Shown: piece after piece, positions 9,001 to 24,000 of the stretch
Numbering within the stretch: position 1 is the first letter of the stretch
Layout of the letters: every line of letters begins with the position of its first letter
Assembly: GCA_963662315.1 (NCBI GenBank)
Contig: OY759353.1
Location: forward strand, 32,001-96,000
Source of the DNA: Geopsychrobacteraceae bacterium
GTDB taxonomy: Bacteria; Desulfobacterota; Desulfuromonadia; Desulfuromonadales; Geopsychrobacteraceae
Direction of reading: 5' to 3'
DNA length: 64,000 bases
Made by a program: the position numbers

Positions 9001-12000
9001 GCTTTCCTGTATCAGTTCAAGACTGGTTGTGCGGGTCTTGGTCTTCAATTCGAGGAGCACGCTGAGCATACTGTTCAGGGCGGAAAACACCCGGGTCAGG
9101 TCGCTATGGTCATAACTGGGGATGTTGTCGATGGAGGTCTTGTCCTGAAAGGTACAGAAGGCTCCGGCAATCAGGCACAGTTCGCGGTACAGCTGTTCCG
9201 GGTGCAGGTCTGGCCAGCTCTGCAGGTGGCGCAGTTGTGGAATAAAAGTGTTCAGATTGCGTAGCAGGGCATGGTTGTTCGGATCCCGTTCAGCAAAAGC
9301 ACTGACTCCACCGTCACAGTCTTTACGTGCTGCTTCGATCTGTTTGCGTTTGGCATTCAGGGTGTCAATAATTCTTTCCAGTTCCTGAACCAGGGTTGGT
9401 GAGGCGGCGATCCGGCAGGTTGGTGGTACGAAACGAGTGGCCAATTGATAACGGTTATCTCCCTGATGGACGACTTCAGCGATTTTAATGTGTAAAAATG
9501 AGCTGAGAGCCTGCTGGTCGGTCATCAGCATCAGGTTCGGTCTGGCCAGCAATACCTCTTTGACCCGGTTGCCGTCATAAAGATCTTCGAGGGTGCTATA
9601 GTCTGCAATCCAACCACTCATTTGGCCGCGCTGAGGATAGCCACTTATTCCGGCAACATGCTGGTTCGCCGGCACTGCCAGATAGACCGCCAAGGGATCT
9701 CCCCCTGGCGATAACAATTCGCAAGCCAGTTCATGATCGTCGCTGCTGCGCTTCTCGACAAAGCGACCATCCTGAAACAGAGCACGGATCTGGAGCAAAC
9801 GGAAGCGCCCCATAGCCAGAGCTTCATGGTCAACACTCATGGAAATAATTCCCCATTCGAAGGGAGATCCGATGCATTGACGCTGCCGCTGATTGTGCTC
9901 CAGTTGCTGGTCCCAGGCCTGGAAATGTTGTTGGCCAAGGAAAATTCCTTCGGCCCAGACGATTTTTTTCATATGTTTATCTTTTATGTGTTGTCGTTAC
10001 CACGCGGTTTACAAAATGGTTTTCTGTCATTCTTCGATGTCAATATGGTGCTCTTTTAATAGGGCTTTAATAGTTGTTGATAGGTCGATCCATAAAAAGG
10101 ATCGATCGACATCTCTGATAACTTTCCAGGATTCATCCGGTTGCTGGTGAAACGCCGCCATAATGCCGACATATTTGGCCTTTTCATTTTTTTCGATAAT
10201 GATTTTTTTCTCAGACGCCGGGTCCAGGGTCAGCGATTCTTTACGCAGTAACGTATCTCTTAAAACGGTCAGGTCGGATTTCCACAATTCCTCAAAACTG
10301 GCTTCTTCAAAGGTCTTTTTGTCGCTGAGTTGGTAGATATTGATTACTACCGGCAGAGGTTCTTTGGCTTGATTCAGATTAAGGGTTGCTGTCGATGCCA
10401 GATCAATTTTGACTTGTGGCGCTGAACATCCGGTCAGGGATAACAGGCAAAATGAAACAACCGCGATAGTGAAAAATGAACTGTTCATTCTCATCGTAAA
10501 GATCCTTTTTAATGTGAATAGGGGGCTGGCGATTCTATTGTCTAGAAGAATGCTGCAAGCGTTTGCCGCGCTGTTGGTCGTAGGCTTTACTGAAGCCAGC
10601 GACAACGAGTTGTTGATGGCGCAGATAGTCATTGGTCAGGAAAGCGCAAAGACGCTTCTTGAAGGTACGCCAGATAAATATTGGGCGGCCAAACAGTTTG
10701 GAGCAATGGGAACGGGTTGTCAGTGGACTGAGCTGTTCGAGGGTCTCGGCAGCTATACCATCAAGAGCTGCACACAGAGCCAGATTGTGCTCAATAATGT
10801 CACTGAGCAAGGCACTGAGGTGGGTTGCACCATGCTGATCATCACGCAGCCAGTTTTTAATGACTTGTCTGGTGTCGTTATTGCGAAGGACCTCCGCAGA
10901 GTGGCGAAAGACACGGTTAAAAGGCAAGCCAAACTCGTTGGCAAAGCTTTTTTGTCCGTCAACGAGTTTAATTAAACCGTTGACAATAACGCGTGACGAA
11001 GCCCTGCGTTTACCAGATATGGACTCTGTGGGTATTGTTTTGCAAACAGAATTGGATAATGAAGCGACCATGGTATCCCCCCCGAATACCAAAAACGACA
11101 ACAAATGAGGCGACCATATACAGGTACGCCAGCTATGTAGTAATTTTCAATGGTGTAGTGTTGTTACTTTAATAAATATAAGTTATTGACTTTGCAGAAA
11201 GTATCTTGAAGATTAAGTAGCAGGAAACTTCCTTATTGCAGTTGGCCTATATGTATTGAATATTTTGTCGGCCAGTGTCAAGTTAAAAAAATGAAAAAAA
11301 TAATTGCTATCAGTGGTAAAACTGATGCATAAAATATGGTATCTGCAGAGTCGTAGACAACAGAAAAATAAATAAAAATATTTTATAAGGGAAAATTCAT
11401 AATGAGCCTTCCTTTATTGTTTTAGTCTAATTATTTTCTGCATTATTTTCACTTTTCAACGTTTGATTTATTTACCAGTTTTTCACAAGGAGGGGGACCC
11501 TTGTCAATATCTGCTGCTCAGTCACGCCTGACCGTCCGGGTCGGTGGTGCTGATTATGCCGTCGTATCTGTGACCGGGCAGGAAGCCTTTAACCGCCCGT
11601 TTTCTTTTGCCCTTGAACTCGTCGTGCCCGGTTATCAGTCGCTCACCAACCAGTTGGGCAGCGGCGTTCGCCTGTCGATGTTGGCGACCAGCGGTCAGCA
11701 GCGCACCGTCTTCGGTCTGGTCACTCAGGTTGCTCATGTTATGGGCCTGCCCGATCAGCGGCAGCTGTGGCGTCTTGAAGTCAGTTCACATCTGTACCGT
11801 TTGCAGCAGGTGAGCGATACCCGTCTGCTGCTCGATCACAGCCTGCCTGAGATTATTCAACGGCTGTGCAACCGCCATGGGCTTGATGACAATGCCCTGT
11901 TCTGTGACTGGGGACAGAGTTACCCGGCCCGGCCGACCACCCTGCAGGCTGGCGAAAGCGACTTTGATTTTCTCGCCCGCTTATGCAGTCGGCACGGCAT

Positions 12001-21000: not shown

Positions 21001-24000
21001 ACCCTCTTTCTTGGTGTCCGAGTTGTCGAGAGTGAAAACATCCAGATCAAGAGGCATATGCCCAGTGGACAATGGCGAGAGTTGTGCCTTGGCTTTCTTG
21101 AGAAACTCCACCGAACAGAAGTCGACGATGATCCGCAAGACCTCGGCGAACTGATCGAGACGCTGCCGCAATGTTTCCTGTGAGGGCGTTTTGGTTAGCC
21201 CCAACGAGGTCCGAAAAAACTCATCGTCCTCAAAAAACGGATGGATAGCGGCAAAATCGCTTTTACCCTGACAGAGCAGGCCCAGATAGCTGCGCAGGAC
21301 ATCGGACGTGGCGATTCCCCGTTTGGGAGCCGCTTTATCGACCCGCGAAGCCAGCGAGGTATAGCGATTCAATGCCACACCGACCAGAGCCAGGCCAGAC
21401 TGAGAGGTGTAAAATTCCTGCTTCGACTGCTCAAGTTTGAACCGGGGAAATGTCACAACCAAAACTCCTTGGGTGAAATTCGATGCGATTCAAGAATAGC
21501 AGAAAAGCACTGTAAAATCAGCTGATTGTCAAAGATCGAAAACAGTTTTAAGTTTGTTTACTCACGGATTCAGGTAACAGGCAATGAGCTTGTTATTGAA
21601 AACAGTACTCTTGAAGAAAGAACATCGTTGGCATGGTCGAGCATCCCTATGGTATTTCGTAAGTGTACATTGGATGGGGTTGGATTGTCTGGAATGAAAC
21701 AGCCTAATAGCATGATAGTTGAGGATAGTTATCTCGATGAAGTAGATTTTGGGCGAGGTCTTTTCTCCACCGTCACTCTGCGTCGTGTGAAACAGGGGGA
21801 AGGACCGGTACGCTTCAATGGTGCAACCATGGAGAGCATTAGGATAGAGGATGTTGATATGTGGCGCGGGTTATCGCTGGCGGAAATTAAGGCAGGGCTT
21901 GTCAGTATTGAAGGGGGAACGTTAAAAACTGCGTTTTCTGATTCTATCATTCCGAAAGTTTATGCAAGGGGGGTAGAATTTTATCTCTTCTCGCTGAGTG
22001 AGGCCAATTTGCCATATGTTTCACTGATCGATTGCATGATCCATGATTTCCCTCTGTGGGACGGTTTTGTCGAGGAACTGCTTGTGCAAAATTCTATCAT
22101 TGGTGAGATTGATGGAGAAAACTTCAAAGCCGACACTGTCGTCTGGGACAATGTTACCCTCGACGGAAAAGTTGATTTGACCAACGCCCATATCAACGAT
22201 TTCCGCCCAACCCGCATTAAGCGCGGCCCCAAGCTGAATCTGATGACTACCGGTTCAAATATTAAATTCTGATGCCCAGGAAAAGCAAGCCTGCGTCATC
22301 CCCTCTGATCCGCAGAGCCTGAAGGGAGCCCCCTCGATTTCTCAAGACCTTCAGGCTCTGCGGTGAAGAACGAAATATACTGTGTTTCGATTTGTTTGGA
22401 GAAATTCACGGCTAAATCTTGACGACTCAACAGTTTAAGAAATCGCTTTGGAATTATTGTGGCTCATTTAATCTTTATCTTATCTGTTCTTTTGACTTTT
22501 TTAGTTGGGATGATTACTTACGCTGGAGTCATATTTGCTTGTTTGCCAGGCGCCACTCTTGATATGAGTTGGCCTAATAGAGTGATTCGCAGCCTCTTCT
22601 GGTTTCATCCTGTATTAGTTTTTTTTCTTCTGATTATGATGAAATGGAAGTTGGAAGATTGTTATATGTCTATTTTATGTGTTCCTCTGCCGTTATTATC
22701 CATTGGTTTGATATGGATATGCTTCTTAATTATAAAGCGGTGAGCTAAGTTGAAAATATCGGACACCAAAGTTTACAATCATTCCCGAATGGAGGTGTCA
22801 CAATGTCAAAAAGATCTAATGGTCGTTATTCGAAAGAGTTTCGTAACGAATCCGTAAAAATGGTTACAGAGGTTGGCCAGACAGCCTATGAACAACAATA
22901 TTTCAAAAAACGGCTAGTCGCTTAATATTTTGGTGTCCGCTATTGACGACCGAGGTCAGTTTCAAGCTCTAGTCACACAATCGCAAACCAATGGTGACAG
23001 GAGAATGGTGGCGGGGGCTTTTTAAATCTTAAGACAAGTGGTATGTCAATGGTATTGGAGGCCACAAGCTAAGGATTATGGCTGTGATCTTTTCAGAAAT
23101 CAGAAGTTTATATTGTGACCCATGCGGAATATGACAATCCCCGCTTCTAGGAAGCCGCATCCAGTACCTCTCTCACCTTGGCCGTCAATGCATCAAACGA
23201 GAATGGCTTTTGTAGAAAATGAACTCCCTTTTCGATCACACCCTGTCTGGCGATGATATCGGCCGTATAACCCGACATAAAGATCACCTTTATCTCGGGC
23301 CGGATGATCTGCAATATGTCTCGTAAATCTTTACCGTTCATCGCGGGCATGATCAAATCGGAAAGCAGTAGATGAATAGGGCCTTCTTTTTCTTTAGCCA
23401 AAGAAATGGCAAGTTCGGTGGACGCGGCAGAGAGGACCGTGTAGCCGCATTCTTCAAGCACGCTATTTATCAGTGTTAGCAGCATCGGGTCATCTTCAAC
23501 AAGCAAAACGGTTTCGTTCCCCGGGCGAGGAGGTTCTATGCTTGTCTTCGTGGTTGCGACTGCTGTTGTTTGTTTTCGCGGCAGGTATATATGGAATGTT
23601 GTTCCCAGTCCCGGTTCACTTGATACCTCTATAAAGCCGTCATTCTGTTTGACTGCTCCGAAAACAGTAGAGAGGCCAAGCCCCGTTCCCTGACCGAACT
23701 CTTTGGTGGTGAAAAATGGCTCAAAGATTTGGGACAGCGTTATTTTGTTCATCCCATGCCCATCATCGGAGACGGAAAGCTGCACATAGTCTCCGGGGAG
23801 AGCCTCGGGATAATTTTTCAGGTCGCTCTCGTTAAATGTGCAGTTTTGCGTTTCAATCACTATATTCCCAATGCCACCAATCGCATCACGGGAATTGACA
23901 CACAGATTAGCCAGGATCTGGTCTAACTGTGAAGGGTCTATTTTGACCGGCCAGAGGCTGCTTGCTGGGTTCCAGGAAAGGTGGATATTCTCGCCGATCA

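Follow-up and report, generated by a model that had tools for sequence, protein, structure and literature searches.

A metallophosphoesterase encoded behind vgrG and its pentapeptide-repeat partner: a probable type VI secretion effector-immunity module in a Geopsychrobacteraceae bacterium

At the end of a type VI secretion system (T6SS) gene cluster in a Geopsychrobacteraceae bacterium, a gene for a large metallophosphoesterase lies between vgrG and a gene for a pentapeptide-repeat protein, which raises the question whether the two encode a secreted toxin and its antidote. The window, the 64,000-nucleotide stretch of contig OY759353.1 that was analysed, contains part of the T6SS; to its left the system continues with tssC, hcp, tssE/F/G, clpV and a second vgrG, and the tssA-M core is complete beside the operon (Pfam/NCBIfam). 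The vgrG, enzyme and partner genes form one operon on the plus strand, transcribed away from the T6SS core. No sigma-54-like motif was found in 10601-11520. The main features are:

1181..11104, minus strand: T6SS core with tssB, tssA, tagF, tssM, tssL, tssK, tssJ and an FHA-C-like gene (Pfam/NCBIfam)
11501..13864, plus strand: vgrG, 787 aa
13631..13861, plus strand: tail domain of VgrG, about 75 aa, probable cargo adaptor
13879..16710, plus strand: Metallophos enzyme, 943 aa, putative effector
16642..17371, plus strand: exchangeable cassette of 730 bp that joins the enzyme tail (aa 922-943) to partner aa 1-222, 34% GC
16707..17858, plus strand: pentapeptide-repeat beta-helix partner, 383 aa, putative immunity protein, signal peptide at 16707-16784
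16775..16787, plus strand: internal ATG (Met27) preceded by AGGA, a ribosome-binding-like site; a 357-aa cytoplasmic isoform is predicted to begin here

The gene order at the end of the T6SS cluster and the 943-aa enzyme agree with a preliminary description of the locus. The 357-aa length given there for the partner needs correction: the open reading frame codes for 383 aa with a Sec-type signal peptide, and 357 aa is the form that starts at Met27. We consider the locus to be an antibacterial VgrG-cargo effector-immunity module with a probability of roughly 75%, and we infer that the enzyme is secreted, is toxic and binds its partner.

The enzyme has neither a signal peptide nor a transmembrane helix, and its catalytic domain covers about aa 273-737. 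All five metal-binding motifs of the calcineurin-like superfamily (DxH, GDxxD, GNH, H and GHxH) are present in the alignment of 110 homologues. Of the metal ligands named earlier, D287, H289, D349, N420, H421, H575, H634 and H636 are conserved in 110/110; D285 is discarded as a ligand, position 285 being Leu in 98/110 aligned rows. The predicted model, now with a pTM of 0.92 (0.88 before), has the calcineurin-like metallophosphoesterase fold and gave the same Foldseek matches to purple acid phosphatases and SMPDL3. Rv0805, GpdQ, a zebrafish dimetal phosphatase and Mre11 are the top fold matches; these use soluble substrates, and the fold alone gives no substrate. Further fold relatives are PhoD and sphingomyelinase-like enzymes. 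A search of PDB sequences with the enzyme profile returned nothing significant, and the ESM Atlas returned generic Metallophos clusters only.

Purple acid phosphatases are characterized by a Tyr ligand in the motif GDxxY. At this position the family has an Asp (D352) in 109 of the 110 rows, and we reject membership of the purple acid phosphatases. The hallmark of acid sphingomyelinase and SMPDL3 is a conserved His four residues past the motif II Asp; the window enzyme has H353 there, and across the 110 rows the position is occupied by Y (43), H (36) or F (31). Identity to the class III phosphodiesterases Rv0805/CpdA and to GpdQ (PDB 3ib7, 2dxl) is 14-19%. Compared with Rv0805 and GpdQ, the window enzyme is extended by an N-domain of 270 aa, a C-domain and a large insertion; it also differs from them in its T6SS surroundings and in having a cognate partner. 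Motifs and fold are those of a binuclear-metal phosphodiesterase site of the Rv0805/GpdQ type, which would hydrolyse the target. The family is large (415 clusters at 50% identity, E up to 1e-30), with loci from many phyla.

Across 233 genomes of the order, matches to the enzyme, whole or fragmentary, occur in 11 of the 29 TssB-positive genomes and in none of the 204 others; for the partner the counts are 9/29 and 0/204. As genomes and loci are related, p-values overstate the significance. Among dereplicated loci, 68 have 2.5 kb or more of upstream sequence; of these, 30 have vgrG up to 5 kb upstream of the enzyme, 37 have it anywhere in the locus, and 16/68 are devoid of any T6SS marker. Three of the markers in this count were defined from the same loci. 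A DUF4123 chaperone gene directly precedes the enzyme in 13/96 loci (9 of them Pfam-confirmed). Exceptions are an enzyme gene behind uvrD (L054) and three behind genes for FG-GAP proteins (L007-L009). The location behind vgrG or an adaptor gene, the lack of a signal peptide and the co-occurrence with T6SS are traits of a T6SS cargo effector.

The vgrG gene itself points in the same direction. Residues 1-710 of VgrG share about 97% identity with three paralogues, which bear long C-terminal extensions instead of the tail, followed by small genes at the equivalent position. Among the loci examined, the tail domain was seen only adjoining or fused to the enzyme family; it occurs on VgrG, as a stand-alone protein or fused to the enzyme, and is present in a single copy in its own genome. 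In other lineages, the position of the VgrG tail is held by the stand-alone or fused tail domain, by DUF4123 or by a LysM/PG-binding protein. The tail had no match in Pfam or among PDB sequences, and nothing at 0.9 or above in the ESM Atlas. According to the accessible part of the source, VgrG of enteroaggregative E. coli (EAEC) loads its cargo Tle1 via a C-terminal TTR domain (PMC10433429). Both systems link a short C-terminal VgrG extension to a downstream cargo gene; the tail in the window differs in having no Pfam family or PDB sequence match. It is probably a cargo adaptor, through which VgrG would carry the enzyme.

A pentapeptide gene adjoins the enzyme in 78 of 88 loci, and in 10/88 none is adjacent by the counting rule used. 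In the window, the start codon of the partner gene and the stop codon of the enzyme gene overlap in ATGA. Most downstream partners (59/74) bear a signal or lipoprotein signal; the remaining 15 were scored as signal-less, two of them probably misses. A Met just after the signal, with a ribosome-binding site, is found in 70 of 72 signal-bearing partner genes, at a Shine-Dalgarno energy of -5.2 kcal/mol; synonymous recoding gives -3.7, and 386 other Met codons give -1.6. The window's own value of -4.1 is unremarkable by itself. The retained Met and ribosome-binding site past the signal therefore predict, at the sequence level, a periplasmic and a cytoplasmic isoform. A commentary describes such a second start in Enterobacter cloacae, where exported and cytoplasmic forms of the immunity protein Tli arise from alternative starts past the signal sequence (PMC10294624). 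Both cases combine a T6SS effector with a repeat-protein immunity in two forms, here predicted; in contrast to the phospholipase Tle and the ankyrin-repeat lipoprotein Tli, the proteins in the window are a calcineurin-like metallophosphoesterase and a pentapeptide beta-helix (PMC10294624). The long form would be exported and guard against injection by kin, and the short form from Met27 may remain in the cytoplasm to hold, fold or activate the enzyme before export.

Pentapeptide proteins with other roles have to be considered. The partner is not a member of the NCBIfam Qnr, MfpA or HalA families (26-39 bits against cut-offs of 240-360); it shares the pentapeptide beta-helix with these and with TvpB/TagB, and is set apart from all of them by its signal peptide and polymorphism. 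Could it serve in T6SS loading, as TvpB/TagB do, rather than in immunity? Class III Tvp clusters do contain pentapeptide accessory proteins, as stated in the accessible part of PMC13373197, and the short isoform would be cytoplasmic. However, TvpB/TagB are cytoplasmic proteins encoded in DUF2169-PAAR clusters, whereas the partners have signal peptides and no DUF2169 match was found in the partner or its operon. In addition, the N-terminal part of the partner (partner-N) falls to 29% identity between same-genus strains with 95% identical enzyme cores, and orphan partner copies occur without an intact enzyme; we regard a loading role as very improbable. The same properties bear on a nutrient-scavenging phosphatase or an anti-eukaryote effector exported by the T6SS with an incidental partner. 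Such roles would suit the relationship in fold to purple acid phosphatases, PhoD and sphingomyelinase-like enzymes, and a few loci, such as L106, have no partner, but a partner that is periplasmic, conserved, polymorphic and prone to form orphans would be superfluous for them, which leaves this explanation highly unlikely. An adjacent coupled gene, a localisation signal, polymorphism and orphan copies are traits of an immunity protein.

The enzyme would likely reach its target from the periplasm. Our best guess is an envelope-acting phosphodiesterase that probably cuts membrane-lipid phosphates. On the periplasmic route, membrane phospholipid head groups are the likeliest substrate, if tentatively so, followed at lower odds by undecaprenyl-pyrophosphate carriers. 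Colicin M is an antibacterial phosphoesterase acting on envelope lipid carriers. TelC, in the accessible part of its description, is an antibacterial lipid II phosphatase (PMC12419801) and offers, with colicin M, a functional model for one candidate substrate; their folds and delivery routes differ from those of the window enzyme.

A cytoplasmic target (cyclic nucleotides, nucleotide cofactors or nucleic acid) would make the short form the real immunity protein, the exported form only intercepting incoming toxin. The best fold matches listed above would fit this, and signal-less partners start near the position of the internal Met, giving a cytoplasmic form in every clade seen. Signal-less partners suit a cytoplasmic target and a cytoplasmic chaperone role equally well. 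The predicted export of 59/74 partners speaks against a cytoplasmic target, as do enzyme homologues fused to envelope domains (M23, OmpA or PG-binding). In several loci with signal-less partners, the next gene codes for a separate signal-bearing protein of about 405 aa or for a membrane protein of about 140 aa; L016, L021, L111 and L119 have neither. Taken together, we consider a cytoplasmic target unlikely.

Specificity may reside in a small part of the enzyme. In 20 close pairs, identity of the enzyme tail (about 20 residues) correlates with that of partner-N (r 0.68, permutation p 2e-4), while the core (-0.08) and C-domain (-0.02) do not. Tail and partner-N adjoin on the DNA, and linkage by itself produces co-variation. 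Identity to locus L002 stops at 16641 and returns at 17372; the joints are the same in an alternative contig of run X1. The tail could be a mere passenger of a recombined block, with specificity elsewhere or broad; the physical linkage agrees with this, and it is the enzyme body that the mid-region of the partner tracks (r about 0.33). On the other hand, the window tail is 78% identical to that of L006 (core 47%) but 28% to that of L002 (core 95%), and two cassettes of locus L004 are 97% identical with nearly all differences in the tail, while identity between their partners is 38.5%. A control in 13 pairs (tail 56%, intervening signal peptide 24%) is weak, as signal peptides evolve fast. A passenger tail is, in our judgement, possible but the lesser prospect. 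Under the specificity reading, the front half of the partner would recognise the last 20 or so residues of the enzyme, and strains appear, from sequence comparison, to change specificity by swapping only these residues and the front half of the antidote. Recombination between conserved flanks would exchange both jointly and could also generate orphan remnant-plus-partner cassettes.

In the literature searched (subscription papers and bioRxiv supplements lay outside the search), no characterised effector of this kind was found. No term for metallophosphoesterases appears in a survey of DUF4123 and adaptors or in its five supplements (PMC7714669), and the accessible part of Zhang 2012 mentions neither 'calcineurin' nor 'pentapeptide'. 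For Neisseria, one sentence in the accessible material predicts Metallophos-domain effector candidates downstream of vgrG (PMC12046857). Compared by description only, these uncharacterised 'metallophosphatase' candidates share the place downstream of vgrG, and the word pentapeptide is absent from the text and supplements in that material. PADLOC assigned 0 families to four proteins, which leaves an anti-phage defence reading without support.

New here are the partner's signal peptide and predicted second start, the joint cassette of enzyme tail and partner, and a VgrG tail domain that tracks the enzyme. If true, our reading would give the T6SS arsenal a further enzyme fold and a further immunity fold, within a large family spanning many phyla, and would provide a second, unrelated system for asking whether two-start, two-compartment immunity is widespread, as left open by the commentary on Tli (PMC10294624). 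It predicts a very small specificity code of about 20 aa, open to simple swaps; a fixed catalytic body with a swapped tail would be unlike the usual polymorphic-toxin design. In its widest form, which we hold to be doubtful, the reading is of a T6SS toxin family on the calcineurin-like fold, spread over several phyla, whose substrates would be envelope lipid phosphodiesters, cleaved in the manner of phospholipase C or of a lipid-carrier hydrolase. A single pentapeptide gene would then provide the antidote in the periplasm as well as an obligatory activator or chaperone in the cytoplasm, and kin specificity would be set by a tail of about 20 residues that is swapped, on an unchanged catalytic body, with half of the antidote gene.

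Downstream of the operon lies a second partner gene:

17858..18168, plus strand: second partner gene, 5' piece, with signal peptide
18169..21574, minus strand: two tandem IS1380 copies (18169-19866 and 19876-21574) inside the second partner gene
21575..22272, plus strand: second partner gene, 3' piece; the listed 248-aa ORF starts within the IS end

What had been taken for two orphan partners (g00026 and g00029) is this one gene, split by the insertions and lacking about 46 codons. The orphan partner reported behind a 100-aa enzyme remnant was recovered at contig 1940063-1941516. Together with the TssB co-occurrence, DUF4123 in the cargo position and the pattern of vgrG paralogues, orphan cassettes and arrays support the effector-immunity reading proposed in the preliminary description and give it a firmer basis than it had there. 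Locus L004 contains an array of enzyme remnants with partners, and in genome G086 the sole match is an enzyme remnant adjoining a partner gene near a vgrG.

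The vgrG, metallophosphoesterase and pentapeptide-repeat genes, placed beside the T6SS cluster by the preliminary description, indeed follow one another on the forward strand at 11501-17858:

11501-13864, +, vgrG
13879-16710, +, 943-aa Metallophos protein (the enzyme)
16707-17858, +, pentapeptide-repeat gene (the partner)

The first two genes are separated by 14 bases, the last two overlap by 4 bases, and all three are oriented away from tssJ-K-L-M-tagF-tssA-tssB. With tssC, hcp, tssE, F, G, clpV and another vgrG located to the left of the window, no part of the T6SS core is missing. 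Among named relatives, Geopsychrobacteraceae MAGs come nearest (78% and 93%). We regard enzyme and partner as an effector-immunity pair, with a probability of roughly 0.85.

The locus set comprised 129 loci, or 113 after reduction at 90% identity. The recurrence of the pairing proposed earlier holds: of 88 loci that extend 600 bases or more beyond the enzyme, 78 have a pentapeptide gene next to it, placed after the enzyme in 73 and before it in 5; among the 10 scored without one, L025 was missed because its gene is split. TssB is present in 29 of 233 genomes of the order. The enzyme is matched in 11 genomes (three with fragments only) and the partner in 9, all TssB-positive, versus 0 of 204 among the rest for either. 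The survey includes kin, which do not count as independent, and 86 genomes fall below the quality bar (≥90% complete, ≤5% contaminated). Where at least 2.5 kb upstream was available (68 loci), vgrG immediately precedes the enzyme in 17, counting a probable ORF-overlap artefact and a 60-aa fragment. It is found no more than 5 kb upstream in 30 and at any position of the locus in 37; some T6SS marker occurs in 52, a count that is partly circular because three marker families were built from the same loci, and none in 16. DUF4123 is directly upstream in 13/96 loci, 9 of them confirmed by Pfam. Three loci (L007-L009) carry enzyme-partner pairs behind FG-GAP repeat proteins of 1400-1800 aa and no T6SS marker, perhaps reflecting another delivery route. 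The 1213-aa homologue in L029 has no partner; a tail-fibre-like gene (Peptidase_S74) flanks it on either side and there is a weak VgrG-like match, a possible contractile-tail or phage context. In a Gemmatimonadaceae MAG, a neighbour protein (L032:12483-14633) combines a PG-binding domain with an Anthrax_toxA (adenylate cyclase-type) Pfam match.

The partner is predicted to fold as a capped beta-helix (pLDDT 96.8). Its full length is 383 aa with the signal peptide, the 357 aa given previously corresponding to an internal start. A heuristic assigns a Sec or lipoprotein signal to 59 of 74 downstream partners; in the other 15 it finds none, 2 of these being probable misses. Signal-less partners start at about the position of the internal Met, and a separate signal-bearing or membrane protein comes next in several of their loci and in several does not. 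Among 95 partner genes examined, 72 have a hydrophobic N-terminal window, with a Met closely behind it in 70, and in the alignment 52 of 60 leader-bearing rows have Met in one common column, against a 2.6% Met background. The mean SD duplex energy at the post-signal Met, -5.2 kcal/mol, compares with -1.6 for 386 other Met codons inside the genes; synonymous recoding brings it to -3.7. The Wilcoxon p of 1.6e-9 is inflated because the genes are related, and a few picks were the wrong Met. In many cases (-4 in 18/59) the long start and the enzyme stop overlap, so both starts appear to be in use. A precedent is Tli of E. cloacae, which exists as a periplasmic lipoprotein and as a cytoplasmic form that is required to activate its toxin (PMC10294624).

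Orphan partners, as had been claimed, are seen in the source genome (behind a long-extension vgrG), in L002, in L004 (as an array) and in G086, a genome of the same order with only a remnant enzyme match. In seven loci (L028, L045, L050, L080, L090, L092, L098) a member of an unnamed ~405-aa signal-bearing protein family comes after the enzyme; where a pentapeptide gene is visible there, it lies upstream. The ~405-aa proteins are a candidate second immunity family.

The end of the enzyme and the front half of the partner behave as an exchange cassette. Relative to L001, the enzyme keeps mostly 80-100% identity through residue 780, with three windows at 66-73%, and drops to 20-46% beyond; against L002 identity is at least 86% over residues 691-900 and 30% in the last 13 residues. 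For core, tail (the last ~20 residues) and partner front half, respectively, the window shares 47%, 78% and 72% with L006, and 95%, 28% and 29% with L002. DNA identity with L002 is lost at 16641 (codon 921) and regained at 17372 (partner codon 222). Run X1 contains the window form and a contig with 718 different letters in place of 16642-17371, which may derive from close kin of L002 and is not an independent case. In 276 complete comparisons among 32 enzyme-end/partner pairs, the last ~18 residues co-vary with the first 200 partner positions (partial r 0.55), versus -0.01 for the core and -0.11 for the C-domain; among 20 close pairs, tail and partner front half give r 0.68 (permutation p 2e-4). 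Physical linkage alone would also produce such co-variation, but in 13 pairs the tail is kept at 56% versus 24% for the intervening signal peptide, a weak control that favours selection. We lean towards the tail as the putative specificity determinant.

The target probably lies on the envelope side, because most partners are predicted to be exported and M23, OmpA and PG-binding fusions exist. Several conserved arginines in the enzyme suggest an anionic substrate; our leading guesses are phospholipid head groups, tentatively, and undecaprenyl-pyrophosphate carriers, with distinctly less confidence. The main rival to an envelope-side target, a nucleotide in the cytoplasm, appears unlikely. Residue 285, formerly listed as the metal ligand D285, is no ligand: it is Leu (98/110 aligned rows).

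Three vgrG paralogues are ~97% identical across residues 1-710, followed by long extensions and small genes; the window vgrG has a short tail and then the enzyme gene in place of the extension. Its ~75-aa tail domain, occurring once in the source genome, recurs on VgrGs upstream of enzyme homologues, as a separate upstream gene (L010, L013, L018, L064, L067, L068, L105) and fused N-terminally to the enzyme (L072, L073, L078), and is probably the cargo adaptor, possibly with a TTR fold.

The enzyme-partner family is real and large and, inside a known kind of system, apparently undescribed so far; two of its peculiarities lend themselves to testing, the double start of the immunity gene and the tail-only specificity cassette. 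In line with the earlier claim, no characterised effector of this kind was found in the open literature searched (PMC13373197, PMC7714669 with supplements, PMC3482391, PMC12419801, PMC10433429, PMC11925235, PMC5851621 and PMC5524665 included). 'Metallophosphatase' effectors downstream of vgrG are predicted for Neisseria in one sentence and one supplement row, and may belong to our family (PMC12046857).

g00026 and g00029, reported before as orphan partners, are parts of a single second partner gene that two IS1380 copies interrupt. Compared with a relative, where the parts match residues 7-82 and 129-358, this gene lacks ~46 codons; one contig of run X6 joins both parts across a gap. IS1380 occupies eight sites in the genome, with identical transposases in 7 copies and 96% in one, a pattern indicating recent activity. 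A hydrophobic 94-aa ORF after this gene (22459-22743), without Pfam, NCBIfam or PADLOC match, is possibly another orphan membrane immunity gene.

Elsewhere on the contig (C1), the region 18689-25011 holds the second vgrG and, behind it, four genes, the last PRK06147-like; they form an accessory cluster of class II Tvp-like type, in which a 120-aa cut-off revealed no PAAR gene. Two further vgrG fusions, of 2196 aa (Rhs-like; 1942946-1949536) and 1196 aa (2111002-2114592), have residues 1-710 in common with the vgrG of the window, and a small gene comes after either one. The region 1889231-1898463 is a polymorphic toxin array, with a long-extension vgrG, several more extension remnants and one small gene per remnant; its final partner resembles an ADP-ribosylglycohydrolase by a motif. 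At 28050-28181 of the window, a vgrG remnant of 44 codons (82% to residues 468-511) adjoins an IS66 fragment.
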